Part shown: in pieces, positions 1,572-9,528 of the stretch
Numbering within the stretch: the stretch's first letter is position 1
Layout of the letters: each line of letters opens with the position of its first letter
DNA from: Candidatus Sulfobium sp.
GTDB taxonomy: Bacteria; Nitrospirota; Thermodesulfovibrionia; Thermodesulfovibrionales; UBA6898
Direction: 5' to 3'
DNA: 26,836 bases
NCBI GenBank assembly: GCA_037380845.1
Contig: JARRRI010000040.1
Location: forward strand, 7,779 to 34,614
Program-made: the position numbers and the translations under genes
Notes under the pieces: model-generated
What the model saw: the letters and a program-made list of their open reading frames with translations, nothing else
The model's database searches: none
What the model was told of the DNA's origin: nothing

Positions 1572-1632
1572 AACTGTATGTACTGCCCTCAGGGGGGATG
1601 TTCCGAGGCAAAAAGAATCTAAAGGAGGAGCA

Positions 1633-2991
1633 ATGAGAACAAAGAGGAGGACCAGATTTACCCTCGCCGTGATCAGCTTTCTCGGCATCGCCTGCGCGTT
1701 CGGCCTGGGTGGCACGCTCTTTGCGGCGGAAGCACCGGCATCCAGCGAGTGCATCAAATGTCATACCGACCTCAAAAAGATGGACCGTTATGGCGCCGCT
1801 TCCGCCGGAGGCGGCGCAGCGATAGCCGGTTGAGGCGTCTCCGCCCCTCAGGTGAGGGGCAGGGACACCTACGGTGTCGATAAGGACTATGTTGATTCCG
1901 TACATGGAAAAGTCGGGTGTATCAACTGCCATAAAGGAAAGAACGTTTCCGACAAGGACAAGGCCCACGAGGGGCTGGTGAAAGACCCGTCTGAAGAAGA
2001 CGGCGGCGGGGTTTGCAGACAGTGTCATGGGGACATAACCTCCACATACAAGAATGCCATGCATTATAACCTTACGGGCATCAAGGACATCGTCGGCACC
2101 CTTATTTCTCCGCATAAGATGAAAGATACCCTTCTGCCGGCTGCCTGGAAGCTGGACTGCGCCAATTGCCACGCCAGTTGCGGCAGCTGCCATGTGGCAT
2201 GGCCCAAGGTGGCCGAGGGCGGACTTCTCAACCGTCACCACTTCGAAAAGAACCCGCCCATGGAGAAAACATGCTATGCCTGCCACGGCTCCCGTTTCGC
2301 CGGTGAATATATGGGACTCCTTGGTCCCAGCCCGGACGTGCATTATGAAAAATACCAGATGGTCTGCACCGACTGCCACAAGGGCTCCGAACTGCATCAC
2401 ACAATGCCGGAAGGCGTCAAGCGTTACTATGCCACGGAGACGCCCCGCTGCGAACAGTGTCATGCGGATGTCGTCTCAGGGAGATCGGAAGTGGCAATGC
2501 ACAATGCGCACAAGAAAAATGAGCTGTCCTGCACTGTCTGCCACGCTACCGAGTACTTCAATTGCACCAACTGTCACGTATCTCTGGACGTCAAGGAGGC
2601 CGGAAACATAAAGGTGATCTTTCCGTCCGACCCTCTTTCAACCTTTAAGATCGGCAGGAATATCGACCGGAGCCCCGGCAATCCCTATGCATACAACCTC
2701 GTCCGTCATACACCGATGAAGAAGGACTCTCTCGCGTCTCTGCGCTATTTTCAAGCCGTTTTGACCGGAAAGCCGGGCCCGGAAGACCTGATTTCCAACT
2801 ATGACGCCCTTCCCACGTGGAATTCTGCTTCAATTCACACGATCCAGCGCAGGACAAAACAGAACAGTTCCTGCAATGCCTGTCACGGACACAGGGGGCT
2901 CTTTCTGACAAAGGATGACCTGGAGCCCGGCGACCCCGAGGCAAACCTCAAGGTAATAGTCAACGAGATTCCGCCGAGGATAAAGAAATGA
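1633..2991 (+). CDS. Exported multiheme cytochrome c with 11 CxxCH motifs; probable selenoprotein (UGA at 1831-1833 = Sec67), 452 aa
   Basis: SD AAGGAGGAG before ATG 1633; signal peptide; ORFs 1633-1833 and 1852-2991 share a frame and are separated only by TGA plus 6 sense codons. Motifs: CIKCH, CINCH, CRQCH, CANCH, CGSCH, CYACH, CTDCH, CEQCH, CTVCH, CTNCH, CNACH. SECIS-like hairpin directly after the TGA. Confidence 0.85.
1834..1869 (+). promoter_or_regulatory. Bacterial SECIS-like element
   Basis: GG-C-GTCTC-C-GCCCCTC-[AGGT]-GAGGGGC-A-GGGAC-A-CC. Perfect 7-bp apical stem plus lower stem; loop starts 16 nt after the UGA, with G at loop position 2. Confidence 0.8.
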
Positions 2992-3029: not shown

Positions 3030-3986
3030 ATGAAAAGGAATTTGATACAGTCCGTTATAATATCGCTGCTTGTAGCGGTGACGGCACTGGTCTCGGCACC
3101 GGCGGCGTCGGCTGCGGGCGTCGACCACCTGGTGAGCACGGAGTGGCTGGCCAAAAATCTGGGTACTCCCGGTATGGTGATCGTCGATGTGAGAACCAAG
3201 GCCAACTACGATTTCGGTCACCTCCCGGGCGCCGTGAGCATGGCATACTCGGGATGGGAGCCTTACAACAAGAAGACACGATGCCAGATGATGCCCTCCG
3301 CGGCCGACATGACGGCCATGCTCAGAAAACTGGGCGTGAACCGGTCGTCCCGTGTCGTTATTTATGATGCGGGGAACACCACCCTTGATGCGACTCAGGG
3401 AGGTGCTGCGGTCTGGATAATGGAGTCCATGGGACATGAAAATGTTTCCTACCTCGACGGCGGGTTTACCAAATGGACATTCGAAGGCCGGATAATAGAC
3501 AAGAAAAAACCGGACATAAAGCCCGGAAATTTCATGGCAAAACTCGACAAAAGCAAGGTGGCCACTCTAAAGGATGTTATTGCCAATCTGAAAACGAAGA
3601 AGGCGATTCTTCTCGATGACAGGAGTGCGGTGCAACATTTCGGCATAGAAAAGCGGCCCGATGTTGTCAGGTACGGACACATTCCGGACTCGCTCAACTT
3701 CCCCATTGATTTCATGACGAATGCCGGGATAAACCGTGCTCCGGCGACCATAAAAAGCAGAAAAGAGCTCGATGCCATGGCGGAGGGAGTGGGCCTTCCA
3801 GCCGACAGGAATACGAAGATCATTGTCTACTGCAACAGCGCCCAGCAGGCGGGAATGGGTTATTTTATCCTCCGTGATATCATGGGGTACAGAAATGTTA
3901 AGGCATATGACGGGTCGATGCTCGAATATGCCCAGGATAAAAAGCTGCCTCTGGTCAGGTTCGCATGGGGTTTCGTTACCAGGTAG
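3030..3986 (+). CDS. Exported tandem-domain rhodanese/sulfurtransferase (SseA-like), catalytic Cys present
   Basis: SD AGGAGG before ATG 3030, preferred over 2988. Signal peptide ending APAASA; LVSTEWL, GHLPGA, LDGGF, GHIPDS, YCNSAQQA active-site loop, YDGSMLEY C-terminal signature. Confidence 0.9.
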   Translation: MKRNLIQSVIISLLVAVTALVSAPAASAAGVDHLVSTEWLAKNLGTPGMVIVDVRTKANYDFGHLPGAVSMAYSGWEPYNKKTRCQMMPSAADMTAMLRKLGVNRSSRVVIYDAGNTTLDATQGGAAVWIMESMGHENVSYLDGGFTKWTFEGRIIDKKKPDIKPGNFMAKLDKSKVATLKDVIANLKTKKAILLDDRSAVQHFGIEKRPDVVRYGHIPDSLNFPIDFMTNAGINRAPATIKSRKELDAMAEGVGLPADRNTKIIVYCNSAQQAGMGYFILRDIMGYRNVKAYDGSMLEYAQDKKLPLVRFAWGFVTR

Positions 3987-4019: not shown

Positions 4020-4976
4020 ATGATGATGAATACATACAAGGTCAGACTGATTGCCTTTTTTGCCGCCGTGATTTTGGTTGTGAGCGCATCAGGCGCGACG
4101 GCGGCCGGGAAGGCAAAGCTGGTGAGCGTCGATTGGCTTGCCAGGAACCTCAGGACGCCCAATGTTGTGATACTCGATGTCGGGGCGTTTACCCAATATG
4201 AAAGGAGCCATGTGCCGGGCGCCGTTAGGGCCTTCGGCCCCTGGCAGACGATGAACGACCAATTTGTGGGTTTCATGATGCGGGATGTTGAGGACCTCGT
4301 CCGGATGCTTCGGAATTACGGCGTAAACAACAGCTCTTACGTAATTGTCTATGACGAAGGGGTGACGGCCCAGGACACCGCCAAGAGCGCAAGGGTCCTC
4401 TGGACGCTGCATGCCCTGGGGCATGACAGGGTGGCGATACTCGACGGCGGTTTTGCTGCCTGGAAACAGAAAGGCAAGAAAGTCTCCACTAAGGCTACCG
4501 TACCCCGGCCGGGAGATTTCACCGGCAAGCTTATAAAGTCCAAACTGGCCACCATGGACGAAGTTAAAGAAGCGCTGCGTTCGTCGGGAGCGGTTTTTGT
4601 GGATGATCGCCTTCCGGAGGAGGACTTCGGCCACGAAAAGAAAAGCTATATAAAACGGTACGGCCACCTTCCGGGATCAAGGTTGTGGCCGGCGGACTTC
4701 ATGACGAACGCCGGGATCGAGTTTTCCCCCTCCTTTATGAGGGATACGACGGAGCTGAAACAGATGGCGAAGGGGATAGGCATCCCGGCGGACAAGAACG
4801 TCGAGATTATAACCTATAGCACCCGCGGAATTCAGGCCGCCATGGGCTACTACGTTCTGCACGACCTGCTGGGTTATAAGAATGTTAAACTTTTTGACGG
4901 CTCCATCCTCGAAGCAGCGGCAGACAAGAGCGTGCCCATGAATACAAACGGATGGGGATACAAGAAGAAGATGTAG
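4020..4976 (+). CDS. Exported tandem-domain rhodanese paralog with Ser at the catalytic position
   Basis: SD GGAGG; signal peptide; LVSVDWL, HVPGA, LDGGF, GHLPGS, FDGSILE; the active-site loop reads YSTRGIQA. Confidence 0.9.
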   Translation: MMMNTYKVRLIAFFAAVILVVSASGATAAGKAKLVSVDWLARNLRTPNVVILDVGAFTQYERSHVPGAVRAFGPWQTMNDQFVGFMMRDVEDLVRMLRNYGVNNSSYVIVYDEGVTAQDTAKSARVLWTLHALGHDRVAILDGGFAAWKQKGKKVSTKATVPRPGDFTGKLIKSKLATMDEVKEALRSSGAVFVDDRLPEEDFGHEKKSYIKRYGHLPGSRLWPADFMTNAGIEFSPSFMRDTTELKQMAKGIGIPADKNVEIITYSTRGIQAAMGYYVLHDLLGYKNVKLFDGSILEAAADKSVPMNTNGWGYKKKM

Positions 4977-5326: not shown

Positions 5327-7210
5327 ATGGGCCGGAATAAAAGCGTTGAAACTGTTCCCCGCGAAGCAAAGAATGATCGCAATTCGCCGGCAAGCCTGGT
5401 TATCCTCCTGCTCCTTAATACGGGCCTCTCTGTCGCGATCGGCACGGGGTTCCTCCGCTATGGAGGCGACAAGGGGCCACTCGAAATATTGCAGTTTGCC
5501 GCGAACTTCATCGCCCTTAACCTCGCGGTCTCCCTTATTGCATTGATCATCGGTCTTCCATTCGGGCGGTGGAAAAAGTACGCCTGGCTTGCCCTTTTCG
5601 GGCTGCTCCAGGTCTTTCTTTTTGCCGATCTGAAGGTCTACGAGCTTTTCCGTTTTCATATAAACTCCCTGGTCTGGAACATGGTGACGACCGAGGGGGT
5701 GTCGGATTCCGTGATAGTGGGGACGTCCACCTATCTGTATGCCGTGACGGCCATTGCCGTGATTTTTTTCATCGAATGGCTGTTGGTCTATTTTTCGTCG
5801 AGGGCCTCCGGGGCTTTTGGAACAAGGCTGAAGGTGGCTGTAATAATAATATTTGGTCTTTCCATTGTGGCCGACAAAATGGTCTTTGCCTTCGGCGAGT
5901 TGTATAATATCCAGCCCATTACCAGGGCCGAAAGGCTTTATCCCCTTTACCAGCCGCTTAACGCGGAGCGCACGCTCTCACGTCTTCTCCACATCAAAGT
6001 CTCCGAACAGGAAAGGCTGCGGTCGGCTCCCCAGGGACATGGGAACCTTCTCCATTACCCGAAAAAACCTCTCGTGAGGGTGGGCGATAAAAGGGACCTT
6101 CCCAACGTAGTGCTGATCGCGGTGGAAGGTTTCAGGTTTGACATGCTCAACCCGAGCGTTACCCCCAACCTTTGGAAATTCGGCAGGGAGAATGTGATCT
6201 TTACCGACCATTACAGCGGTGGAAACGGTTCGAGGGCCGGGGTGTTCTCTTTACTCTATGGGCTCCAGGCCTCTTACTGGCACGATTTCCTGATTGAAAG
6301 AAGGTCCCCCGTCCTCATAGACTCTCTCATGTCTCTTGGATACCGCTTCAAAATACTTTCTGCCACGCGTCTCACATTCCCGGAATTCCGAAAGACGGCT
6401 TTCGTGAAGATACCGGAAGACATAGAAGACGAGCTGCAGGCAAAAGGCGGGGCCGGCAGGGACAGGGTGCTCGCCGAAAGGTTTATCGATTTCATTTCAA
6501 AGGGGGATGCGTCGAGGCCCTTTTTCTCGTTCATGTTTTTTAATGCATCGCATCAGCCTTACGCCTACCCAAAGGTATTTGAAAAGTTTACACCGGCTGC
6601 CCCCCCGGAGATAAATTATGTCGGTGAGGTGAAGAAGGCCAATGCGGCCCTGCTGAGGAACAGGTACAAGAACGCCCTCCACTATGACGATTCCCTCTTT
6701 GGAAGGATATTTTCGGCCCTTCGTGAGAAAGGCGTGCTTGACAATACGATAGTTATTGTAACGGGGGACCATGGAGAGGAGTTTTTCGAGCAGGGCTATT
6801 TCGGACATACGAGCTCTTTTGACGACTACGAGACAAAGACCGCCTTTGTAGTTCATATGCCGGGTGACAGGTATAAGGGGATGGAAGTGCGTAAACTTAC
6901 CAGTCACCTCGATGTCGTCCCCACCATAATGAAGGCCCTCGGCTATACCAACGATCCCTCGGACTACGCCGATGGCATCCCGCTTTTCGATGAGAGGGAG
7001 CATCCTTATGTATTTTCCGCCGGGTGGGACAGGCTCTGCATGATAGACAAGAACGTCAAGGTGGTCTTCGGCACGCAGACGTACAGAGGCACATTTGATG
7101 TGCTGGACTCAAGGACCTACAAGCCCGAGCCCGATGCGGACAGGATACTTAAGGCGAAAAAGGGCGAGATATCGGACGTCTTGAGAAGAATGTCCGCTTT
7201 CTACAAGTGA
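5327..7210 (+). CDS. Inner-membrane sulfatase-fold protein, YejM/PbgA (DUF3413) family-like
   Basis: About 5 N-terminal TM segments with YELFRFHINSLV and PLYQPL; PNVVLIAVEGFRFD, HYSGGNGSRAGVFSLLYGL, TGDHGEEF, TSHLDVVPT. Confidence 0.85.
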   Translation: MGRNKSVETVPREAKNDRNSPASLVILLLLNTGLSVAIGTGFLRYGGDKGPLEILQFAANFIALNLAVSLIALIIGLPFGRWKKYAWLALFGLLQVFLFADLKVYELFRFHINSLVWNMVTTEGVSDSVIVGTSTYLYAVTAIAVIFFIEWLLVYFSSRASGAFGTRLKVAVIIIFGLSIVADKMVFAFGELYNIQPITRAERLYPLYQPLNAERTLSRLLHIKVSEQERLRSAPQGHGNLLHYPKKPLVRVGDKRDLPNVVLIAVEGFRFDMLNPSVTPNLWKFGRENVIFTDHYSGGNGSRAGVFSLLYGLQASYWHDFLIERRSPVLIDSLMSLGYRFKILSATRLTFPEFRKTAFVKIPEDIEDELQAKGGAGRDRVLAERFIDFISKGDASRPFFSFMFFNASHQPYAYPKVFEKFTPAAPPEINYVGEVKKANAALLRNRYKNALHYDDSLFGRIFSALREKGVLDNTIVIVTGDHGEEFFEQGYFGHTSSFDDYETKTAFVVHMPGDRYKGMEVRKLTSHLDVVPTIMKALGYTNDPSDYADGIPLFDEREHPYVFSAGWDRLCMIDKNVKVVFGTQTYRGTFDVLDSRTYKPEPDADRILKAKKGEISDVLRRMSAFYK

Positions 7211-7626: not shown

Positions 7627-9528
7627 ACGCAGATCAAGCTCATAATTGAAGAAGGACGGGAACAGGATATCAGCGATATTTCCGAGTTGGAGAAGTCGCT
7701 CAAAAAAGTGAAGGCCATAGCCGTAAAAGTCAACGGGCGGCTCGAAGACCTGACTTCCTTGGGGTCCCTGGGTGAGAAGGACGTTCTTGAAGCGGTCACT
7801 TTTGGTTCCGAAGAGGGCAGGGAGATTTACAGGCACAGCACGTCACATGTCATGGCCCACGCCGTGAAGACTCTATTCCCGGAAGCGAAGGTGGCCATAG
7901 GTCCGGCGATACAGGAAGGCTTCTATTACGACTTCGATATCGAAAAGAACTTTACCCCTGAAGACCTGGCGGCCATTGAAAAGGAGATGGAAAGGATCAT
8001 CAGGAAAAATTCTTCCTTCGTAAGAAAGGAAGTCGGCAGGGAAGAGGCTATACGCATGTTCGAAGAGATGGGCGAGCCCTATAAAGTCGAACTTATCAGG
8101 GACATACCTGATGAAAAAGTGTCCATATATGAAGAGGACGGGTTTGTCGACCTGTGCCGTGGGCCTCACCTTGCGTCAACCGGCAAGGTCGCGGCTTTCA
8201 AGCTCCTCAGCGTAGCCGGGGCCTACTGGAGGGGAGACGAGAAAAACAAGATGCTCCAGCGGATCTACGGGACCGCCTTCAACAATCCGAAGGATCTGAA
8301 AAAGTATCTGGATTTTCTGGAAGAAGTGAAGAAAAGAGACCACAGGAGACTGGGGAAGGAGCTTGACCTTTTCAGTATCAGCGACGATATCGGTTCCGGG
8401 CTCATACTCTGGCATCCGAATGGTGCCCTGATCAGAAAGACGATCGAGGATTTCTGGAGGGACGAGCACCTCAAGGCCGACTACAAAATCCTTTACACCC
8501 CCCACATCGCCAAACTGGATCTATGGAAGAGAAGCGGTCATCTGGATTTCTACAGGGAGAACATGTATTCACCGATGGAGATAGAGGGGATCGATTACGA
8601 AATCAAGCCGATGAACTGTCCCTTTCATCTGGGTGTATACAAGAGTAACTTGAGAAGTTACCGCGATCTTCCATTGCGTTATGCCGAGCTCGGAACGGTT
8701 TACCGGTACGAGCGGTCGGGAGTGCTGCACGGTCTTCTTCGGGTCAGGGGATTTACGCAGGACGATGCTCATATATTCTGCAGGGAGGACCAGATTGAAG
8801 ATGAAATATTGAGGGTTCTCGATTTCACTCTTTTTATACTGAGGACCTTCGGATTCGAGCAATACGACGTTTATCTTTCGACAAGACCCGAAAAATATGT
8901 GGGGAGCCTTGAAAACTGGGAAAGGTCTACGAGTGCGCTCAAACAGGCCCTTGAGAACAAGGGCCTGTCTTTCATGATCGACCCCGGAGAAGGCGTGTTC
9001 TACGGCCCCAAGATCGATATCAAGGTCAAGGATTCGCTGGGAAGACCGTGGCAATGCAGTACTATACAGGTCGATTTCAACAACCCTGAAAGGTTCGACA
9101 TTTCCTACAGGGGGAGCGACGGGAAAGACCATCGACCCATCATGGTGCACAGGGCGCTGATGGGCTCCCTGGAGAGGTTTTTCGGCATCTTGATCGAACA
9201 TTATGCAGGCGCGTTCCCCCTGTGGCTGGCGCCAGTCCAGCTGTCTGTTCTCACTATAGCGGAAAGACATGCCTCATATGCGGAGGAAATGTGCGCTGCT
9301 CTGAAGAGGGGCGGTATAAGGGCCGAACTCGACACCGACAACGAAAAGATCGGCAACAAGATACGGAAGAGCAGTGTCAGGAAGATACCTTATTCGGCAG
9401 TAATAGGAGACAAGGAAGTATCCGAGCGCAGGGTCATGCTCAGGAGGAGGGACGGGCAGAATTCGGGCCCCTTTACGGCAGAGGAATTGACGGCTCTTCT
9501 TCGGGAAGAGGTTAACTCCAGGAGGTGA
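7627..9528 (+). CDS. thrS: Threonine--tRNA ligase (start uncertain: ACG 7627, ATC 7633 or TTG 7687)
   Basis: RHSTSHVMA, DLCRGPH, GAYWRGD, RDHRRLG, KPMNCPFH, RYERSG, FYGPKID, HRALMGSLERF. Confidence 0.97.
   Translation, partial: TQIKLIIEEGREQDISDISELEKSLKKVKAIAVKVNGRLEDLTSLGSLGEKDVLEAVTFGSEEGREIYRHSTSHVMAHAVKTLFPEAKVAIGPAIQEGFYYDFDIEKNFTPEDLAAIEKEMERIIRKNSSFVRKEVGREEAIRMFEEMGEPYKVELIRDIPDEKVSIYEEDGFVDLCRGPHLASTGKVAAFKLLSVAGAYWRGDEKNKMLQRIYGTAFNNPKDLKKYLDFLEEVKKRDHRRLGKELDLFSISDDIGSGLILWHPNGALIRKTIEDFWRDEHLKADYKILYTPHIAKLDLWKRSGHLDFYRENMYSPMEIEGIDYEIKPMNCPFHLGVYKSNLRSYRDLPLRYAELGTVYRYERSGVLHGLLRVRGFTQDDAHIFCREDQIEDEILRVLDFTLFILRTFGFEQYDVYLSTRPEKYVGSLENWERSTSALKQALENKGLSFMIDPGEGVFYGPKIDIKVKDSLGRPWQCSTIQVDFNNPERFDISYRGSDGKDHRPIMVHRALMGSLERFFGILIEHYAGAFPLWLAPVQLSVLTIAERHASYAEEMCAALKRGGIRAELDTDNEKIGNKIRKSSVRKIPYSAVIGDKEVSERRVMLRRRDGQNSGPFTAEELTALLREEVNSRR

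Follow-up and report, generated by a model that had tools for sequence, protein, structure and literature searches.

Does the TGA at positions 1831-1833 of a 26,836-nucleotide stretch of Candidatus Sulfobium sp. DNA (contig JARRRI010000040.1; the whole stretch is called the window, and all coordinates are positions within it on the forward strand) end a gene, or is it read through? The open reading frame (ORF) 1633-1833 carries one haem motif and closes with this TGA, and the identical frame then stays open until a second TGA at 2989-2991. We find that bases 1633-2991 are very probably one gene, whose internal UGA would be decoded as selenocysteine (Sec) by SelB and tRNA-Sec to give an exported 452-residue cytochrome with 11 haems. 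The stop codon that splits the gene almost certainly encodes selenocysteine, judging from the comparison of related sequences. The features on which this reading is built, including a hairpin that resembles a selenocysteine insertion sequence (SECIS), are the following.

1623..1628, + strand: Shine-Dalgarno sequence AGGAGG, 4 nucleotides ahead of the ATG at 1633, read from the sequence
1633..2991, + strand: predicted single selenoprotein gene, 452 residues, c-type cytochrome with 11 haems and Sec67; the TGA at 2989-2991 is its real stop
1633..1728, + strand: signal peptide, about residues 1-32, judged by eye; homologue N-termini are comparable
1750..1764, + strand: haem motif 1, C40-I-K-C-H44, invariant in 51/51 aligned Sec forms
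1831..1833, + strand: UGA codon for Sec67 in the invariant context G66-U67-G68; TGA in 78/78 scored loci including the window's own
1833..1870, + strand: SECIS-like hairpin with lower stems 1833-1841/1862-1870, upper stem 1843-1849/1854-1860 and apical loop AGGU at 1850-1853

The original prediction, made from the letters of the window, had described an ORF with a Shine-Dalgarno sequence, a signal peptide, one CxxCH and a terminal TGA, continued in the same frame by ten further CxxCH without a Shine-Dalgarno sequence or signal peptide of their own. Both parts are found as described, at 1633-1833 and from there to 2991. Judged by eye, the N-terminus MRTKRRTRFTLAVISFLGIACAFGLGGTLFAA resembles a signal peptide. 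In the read-through protein the CxxCH motifs lie at residues 40, 96, 128, 176, 183, 214, 245, 273, 300, 311 and 414 (1 + 10 = 11), and all of them are invariant across 51 aligned sequences. The further claim that the mature chain holds no cysteine outside CxxCH is also correct, the sole such residue being C21 within the signal peptide. Sec67 would lie between haem motifs 1 and 2, in the loop AIAG-U-GVSAP, which is rich in Gly and Ala. Ten histidines are invariant as well, and an eleventh is shifted by two positions between the two clades described below (PHK in clade A, PExH in clade B); M210 and M243 are likewise invariant in the 51-sequence alignment. Because the conserved histidines suffice for 11 bis-His haems, Sec is not required as a haem ligand. 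The version of the protein that gene callers deliver is a 379-residue ORF from GTG 1852, a codon inside the apical loop of the hairpin with no Shine-Dalgarno sequence ahead of it.

Evidence for recoding comes from the relatives of this gene. A scan of species-representative genomes gave at least 542 confirmed related stretches, of which we examined the best 80; these come from Nitrospirota, Desulfobacterota and Chloroflexota. TGA stands at the same codon in 77 of the 80 loci, each with the upstream frame open and a CxxCH about 25 residues earlier, and the long frame after the TGA encodes 10-12 haem motifs. Of the three remaining loci, L036 shares the in-frame stop and also has a TAA further on, and L068 and L104 are truncated by a contig end. 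The terminal stops of the same genes vary (TAA 41, TAG 18, TGA 17, open 2). The sequences fall into clade A, with 36 members from Nitrospirota and Desulfobacterota including the window and the context AIAG-U-GVSAPQVRGRD, and clade B, with 42 Chloroflexota sequences and the context SKGVG-U-GGEVAPLEPWEK; G66, U67 and G68 are invariant in 51/51 aligned sequences. The N-termini of the Chloroflexota forms are lipoprotein-like, with ...AGC/SSC motifs. A six-frame search of 41 genomes (40 relatives and the window's own) returned full-length matches with exactly one internal TGA each from the window's genome and from each of the three genomes of its genus. Two copies (G001:C38 and G001:C114) occur in one genome of the genus, 94% and 80% identical to the window protein and each with one TGA. 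In G014 (G014:C199) the copy is divided into two pieces and has a TAA besides the TGA; it may be a pseudogene, or the assembly may break there. All these matches retain the peptide AAIAG*GVSAP.

The original prediction also named alternation of TGA with cysteine as a sign of a Sec site, and more distant relatives do show it. Among 1.84 billion cluster representatives, a profile search gave 1354 matches at E <= 1e-3 and 206 at E <= 1e-30. From 150 listed matches we picked the 40 representatives (of 50%-identity clusters) that span the site. Their Sec column holds Cys in 10, Cys beside an alignment gap in 5, Trp in 3 and other residues in 22, so that 10-15 of the 40 can be counted as Cys forms. 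These Cys forms have mostly the context G-C-G-G and are single polypeptides. According to this alignment, Sec alternates with Cys in the near family; branches further away have neither. A second Cys adjoins or lies near the Sec-equivalent Cys (as CC or CxxC) in P0145, P0152, P0153, P0155 and P0172; a dithiol may do the work of Sec where Sec is replaced. The database proteins P0058, P0124, P0146 and P0233 show Trp at the Sec column, which may be a true Trp or a TGA that a gene caller translated under another table.

Directly after the TGA, the GC-rich hairpin GCCCCTC-AGGT-GAGGGGC with its lower stem had been predicted. It is present at 1833-1870, with the upper stem and loop letters GCCCCTC (1843-1849), AGGT (1850-1853) and GAGGGGC (1854-1860), and it folds with -31.1 kcal/mol (z = -3.0; one shuffle in 200 folds equally well). 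The upper stem begins 9 nucleotides past the UGA in clade A, with GCCCCUC-AGGU-GAGGGGC, and equally in clade B, with GUGGCUCC-GUU-GGAGCCAU, so that the sequences differ and the register is the same. In clade A (35 distinct sequences) 91.4% of cells retain their pairing versus 46-65% with the partners slid; in clade B, where two compensatory pairs occur, the figures are 94.7% versus 37-50%. The codons are also constrained. Over codons +1 to +12 the codon entropy averages 0.64 versus 1.22 elsewhere in clade B and 0.88 versus 1.24 in clade A, and at each of the clade B positions +4 to +8 (V-A-P-L-E) 40-41 of 41 sequences share one codon. The G-U of the loop is located 21-23 nucleotides from the U of the UGA, which we take to be close to the geometry of the E. 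coli fdhF SECIS. In the metagenome runs X1, X5 and X8 the summed contig depth climbs two- to four-fold over precisely the segment 1835-1881, where several contigs that differ further upstream come together; depth peak and joining contigs fit a segment shared nearly unchanged by co-occurring relatives. An Rfam scan of the window at gathering thresholds gave no match. As part of the whole reading, we think it highly probable that the recoding of the UGA is guided by this hairpin starting 9 nucleotides downstream.

Can the organism make selenoproteins at all? Its genome, 100% complete by marker genes, contains adjacent selA (620 bits) and selB (332 bits) genes, a selD with one in-frame TGA of its own, and a tRNA-Sec scoring 73 bits, all above their curated cut-offs. 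The presence of these genes had been named beforehand as a check on the prediction, as had the possibility that the TGA is a sequencing error. Three other runs (X5, X8 and X9) yielded contigs that span 1831-1833, with 31 or more letters to either side, and none shows another letter there, so that the TGA is not an assembly error; a contig from X1 ends 18 letters past the codon and was excluded from the bridging count. The conserved TGA, the Cys forms, the hairpin and the Sec machinery together support the predicted single 452-residue selenoprotein with Sec67.

What does the cytochrome act with? Directly downstream lie two genes for exported rhodanese proteins.

3030..3986, + strand: exported double-rhodanese protein 1 with catalytic Cys (VYCNSAQQAG); likely start ATG 3030 behind GGAGG, the mechanical ORF running from 2988
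4020..4976, + strand: exported double-rhodanese protein 2, in which Ser replaces the catalytic Cys (TYSTRGIQAA); the window copy is without any Cys

Both genes are present in all 34 clade A loci that have downstream DNA, the loci L062 and L069 ending too early. The catalytic position is Cys in 33/33 orthologues of rhodanese 1 and Ser in 33/33 orthologues of rhodanese 2; L038, whose first rhodanese is in two pieces, was left out of this count. By this residue pattern the two proteins are a fixed pair of a predicted active and a predicted inactive rhodanese, and cytochrome, Cys-rhodanese and Ser-rhodanese paralogue form a conserved three-gene cassette. Among 5 clade A loci examined we found no conserved flanks beyond it. 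Of nine loci examined in clade B, eight have a rhodanese protein directly downstream, with four rhodanese domains in 7/8 and two in L073; in the ninth, L075, the downstream frame was dropped by the ORF filter. In L094 (4103-7156) a single frame of 1018 residues joins the part of the cytochrome behind its TGA to a rhodanese with four domains, and this natural fusion argues for the association of cytochrome and rhodanese. The same nine loci contain a LysR-type regulator (9/9), a second multihaem cytochrome (6/9), a 4Fe-4S dicluster protein (4/9) and, in L084, beside the multihaem and 4Fe-4S genes, an NrfD-like membrane protein (1/9). The multihaem, 4Fe-4S and NrfD genes of the Chloroflexota could form a quinol-oxidising module. 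Upstream and on the opposite strand in L070, L075, L084, L100, L094 and L073 stands a divergent LysR regulator, followed by the multihaem cytochrome and the 4Fe-4S dicluster protein.

Multihaem selenoproteins as such are already known, and the one in the window has a distinct architecture with its own partners. The characterised case is MccSep/ExtKL of Geobacter sulfurreducens (GSU2937-2936; NF040886), a multihaem cytochrome c selenoprotein and polysulfide reductase. It is described in PMC13510729 with five haems, a haem-ligating Cys239 and an Ig-like domain at the C terminus whose D-G-U-P loop holds Sec325. The two proteins share several features: both are periplasmic multihaem c-type cytochromes whose genes annotation breaks in two at an in-frame UGA with a SECIS-like hairpin behind it, both belong to Sec/Cys families in Desulfobacterota and Nitrospirota, both place Sec in a Gly-containing loop (D-G-U-P in MccSep, G-U-G here), and a rhodanese gene, ExtH, lies within the MccSep cluster. 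However, MccSep has 5 haems instead of 11, its Sec325 is in the Ig-like domain at the C terminus and not, like Sec67, just past haem 1, and it needs a conserved haem-ligating Cys, whereas the window family has no Cys outside CxxCH. The original prediction had described ExtKL as having fewer haems and a different layout, which agrees with the five haems given in PMC13510729. The read-through protein has no NF040886 match at E <= 0.01 (cut-off 250 bits), and with haem count, Sec position and Cys ligand all different we reject membership in the MccSep/ExtKL family. Over the whole genome of the window the best NF040886 score is 22.1 bits against the cut-off of 250, on contig C51 outside the window; since this genome has no MccSep match above the cut-off, MccSep and the window family do not simply accompany each other. 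On the ExtH model the window rhodaneses score 48-61 bits against a cut-off of 200.

The other cytochrome selenoproteins listed in the accessible part of a 2026 review (PMC13188914) beside ExtKL NF040886 are GSU2204 (NF041027) and the OTR family (TIGR04315). Neither accommodates the read-through protein: it has no match to NF041027, the sole match in the genome lying on contig C1 with 76.5 bits against a cut-off of 350, and no match to TIGR04315 at E <= 0.01. Its only NCBIfam match at that threshold is the DmsE decahaem model (TIGR03508), which we also reject, with 29.9 bits against a cut-off of 192.2 over residues 160-306 only. The octahaem enzymes OTR, octahaem nitrite reductase, HAO and IhOCC are likewise catalytic multihaem cytochromes of nitrogen and sulfur metabolism, but they differ from the window protein in haem number, Sec position and rhodanese linkage. 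They fill the top four rows of a VIA-align comparison made with a low-confidence AlphaFold2 model, with Z scores of 3.7-5.3 that are all below the trust level of the tool: 4qo5 (IhOCC; Z 5.3, 198 aligned residues, root-mean-square deviation 4.9), 8rv0 (Z 4.2), 1sp3 (OTR; Z 3.9, 236 aligned, 5.2) and 6m0p (Z 3.7). Foldseek with the same model gave nothing in the PDB at E <= 0.001. Sequence and profile searches of the PDB returned local haem-motif matches only (28pb_A at 6.8e-6 over about 100 residues, NrfA at E 3e-4), and thus no full-length relative among the solved structures of a PDB copy in which the presence of MccSep is unconfirmed. TsdA and SoxXA, sulfur enzymes with His/Cys-haems (PMC13510729), are also c-type cytochromes; a chalcogen nucleophile beside a haem serves them to act on thiosulfate or sulfane sulfur. 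For Sec67, proximity to a haem is only a possibility. They differ in being dihaem proteins with Cys instead of Sec, and the PDB sequence and profile searches revealed no sequence relation.

What reaction might the protein catalyse? The family probably acts on sulfur compounds, and we see an even chance that the protein is an extracytoplasmic reductase of sulfane sulfur, with polysulfide, thiosulfate or a persulfide on the rhodanese as its substrate. Sulfane sulfur, more than metals, is what the strict rhodanese linkage points to. In such a cycle the Cys-rhodanese would collect sulfane sulfur, and a Se-S intermediate would form when the Sec67 selenolate attacks the rhodanese persulfide or polysulfide; electrons from the haem chain would reduce this adduct with release of sulfide. 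In Chloroflexota the electrons might come from quinol via the neighbouring multihaem, 4Fe-4S and NrfD genes as an NrfCD-like module. This proposal resembles the working model for MccSep, yet the scaffold is unrelated and has no haem-ligating Cys. The original prediction had suggested that Sec could be a haem ligand or a swinging S/Se carrier. Sec might indeed be the sixth ligand of one haem; to our knowledge a natural His/selenocysteinate c-haem has not been described so far.

How do other explanations compare? If the TGA were a real stop, the locus would hold either two genes, a 66-residue monohaem peptide and a 10-haem protein from about GTG 1852, or a decayed pseudogene. Gene callers do annotate two genes, most database homologues are about 379 residues long and cover 81-85% of the query, and the extra TAA in G014 and L036 suggests that some copies may be broken. 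Yet the downstream part lacks a Shine-Dalgarno sequence and a signal peptide although c-type haem attachment requires export, and this codon is TGA in 77 of 80 loci from three phyla while the terminal stops vary; with the upstream frame and the G-U-G context conserved and the Cys forms being single polypeptides, we regard a real stop as very improbable. The same holds for a UGA that is read as an ordinary residue (Trp, Cys, Gly or Arg) through near-cognate decoding or an altered code. The Trp in three spanning representatives and in P0058, real or a TGA under another table, fits such a reading, but the window gene and 16 homologues terminate with TGA, the genome encodes a complete Sec machinery with a Sec-type selD, the hairpin is conserved at SECIS distance, and the site alternates with Cys, which is a hallmark of Sec sites. 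A serious though less likely alternative is a true selenoprotein that is not a sulfur reductase. It might then work in the oxidative direction (thiosulfate or sulfide oxidation, as TsdA and SoxXA do), detoxify selenite or tellurite, or serve mainly as an electron-transfer wire, Sec being a redox switch or a ligand to haem. Selenite is a further substrate of MccSep (PMC13510729), and the carriers include metagenome-assembled genomes of Desulfobulbaceae and Desulfurivibrionaceae, groups for which sulfide oxidation and disproportionation are reported (PMC13047784). Eleven haems exceed the need of a simple reductase, and the Chloroflexota forms resemble surface lipoproteins. Against this stand the strict rhodanese linkage, which favours sulfane sulfur over metals, and the conserved histidines, which are enough for 11 bis-His haems and make a Sec ligand unnecessary.

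Several points weigh against the reading that we prefer, a single selenoprotein gene whose product would reduce sulfane sulfur. Both compensatory pairs of the clade B hairpin come from one sequence, L100, and a double-sided change looked for in the 35 distinct clade A sequences was not found; the covariation is thin, and the support for the hairpin is therefore mostly conservation, part of which could reflect the conserved peptide. The synonymous suppression is moderate, equally low windows occurring elsewhere in the gene in 7/219 cases in clade A and 7/153 in clade B. With another residue in 22 of the 40 spanning representatives and Trp in three, Sec/Cys is not universal in the wider superfamily. 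The AlphaFold2 model from the 51-sequence alignment is poor (mean predicted local distance difference test score 59.7, predicted template modelling score 0.48, Sec loop below 50) and so nowhere places Sec near a haem. Finally, the proposed function is based on gene neighbourhood and on analogy to an unrelated enzyme.

Around the cassette we noted a perfect 13-bp inverted repeat by eye, AGCTCCGCTTCGG ... CCGAAGCGGAGCT at 1524-1564, with a 15-nucleotide spacer that contains TTGACA (1542-1547). It ends about 70 nucleotides before the start codon and is a candidate operator or terminator. The neighbouring genes encode an FtrD-like membrane iron-sulfur protein (539-964, - strand), a YejM/LapC-like sulfatase-family protein (5327-7210, + strand) and threonine-tRNA ligase (7687-9528, + strand), and show no evident link to the cassette.

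In summary, the family is widespread, as the counts of related stretches and cluster representatives show, and it is mis-annotated. Public records split the gene and hold either a haem protein of about 379 residues without signal peptide or an entry named sulfurtransferase, and because the gene is cut in two, the family is invisible in surveys of selenoproteomes and cytochromes. In the literature that we covered, with subscription journals, bioRxiv supplements and the supplementary tables of PMC13510729 outside this coverage, we found no description of an 11-haem, rhodanese-linked selenocytochrome. Multihaem selenoenzymes were experimentally established only with MccSep, in 2026. The accessible part of PMC13510729 reports the MccSep family mainly from Desulfobacterota and Nitrospirota, and the present family reaches into Chloroflexota, a phylum not named among the main ones there. 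We tentatively propose, with a little less than even confidence, a second, independently evolved class of multihaem selenoenzymes, in which Sec stands on a flexible loop near the N-terminus of an 11-haem scaffold that has no haem-ligating Cys and is served by a dedicated exported rhodanese pair, one catalytic and one with Cys changed to Ser, that would feed it sulfane sulfur for reduction or oxidation. The protein is a testable candidate for extracytoplasmic sulfur and polysulfide chemistry in sulfate reducers, sulfur disproportionators and Anaerolineae. If the proposal is true, hundreds of Desulfobacterota, Nitrospirota and Chloroflexota species would possess an unrecognised enzyme of the sulfur cycle.

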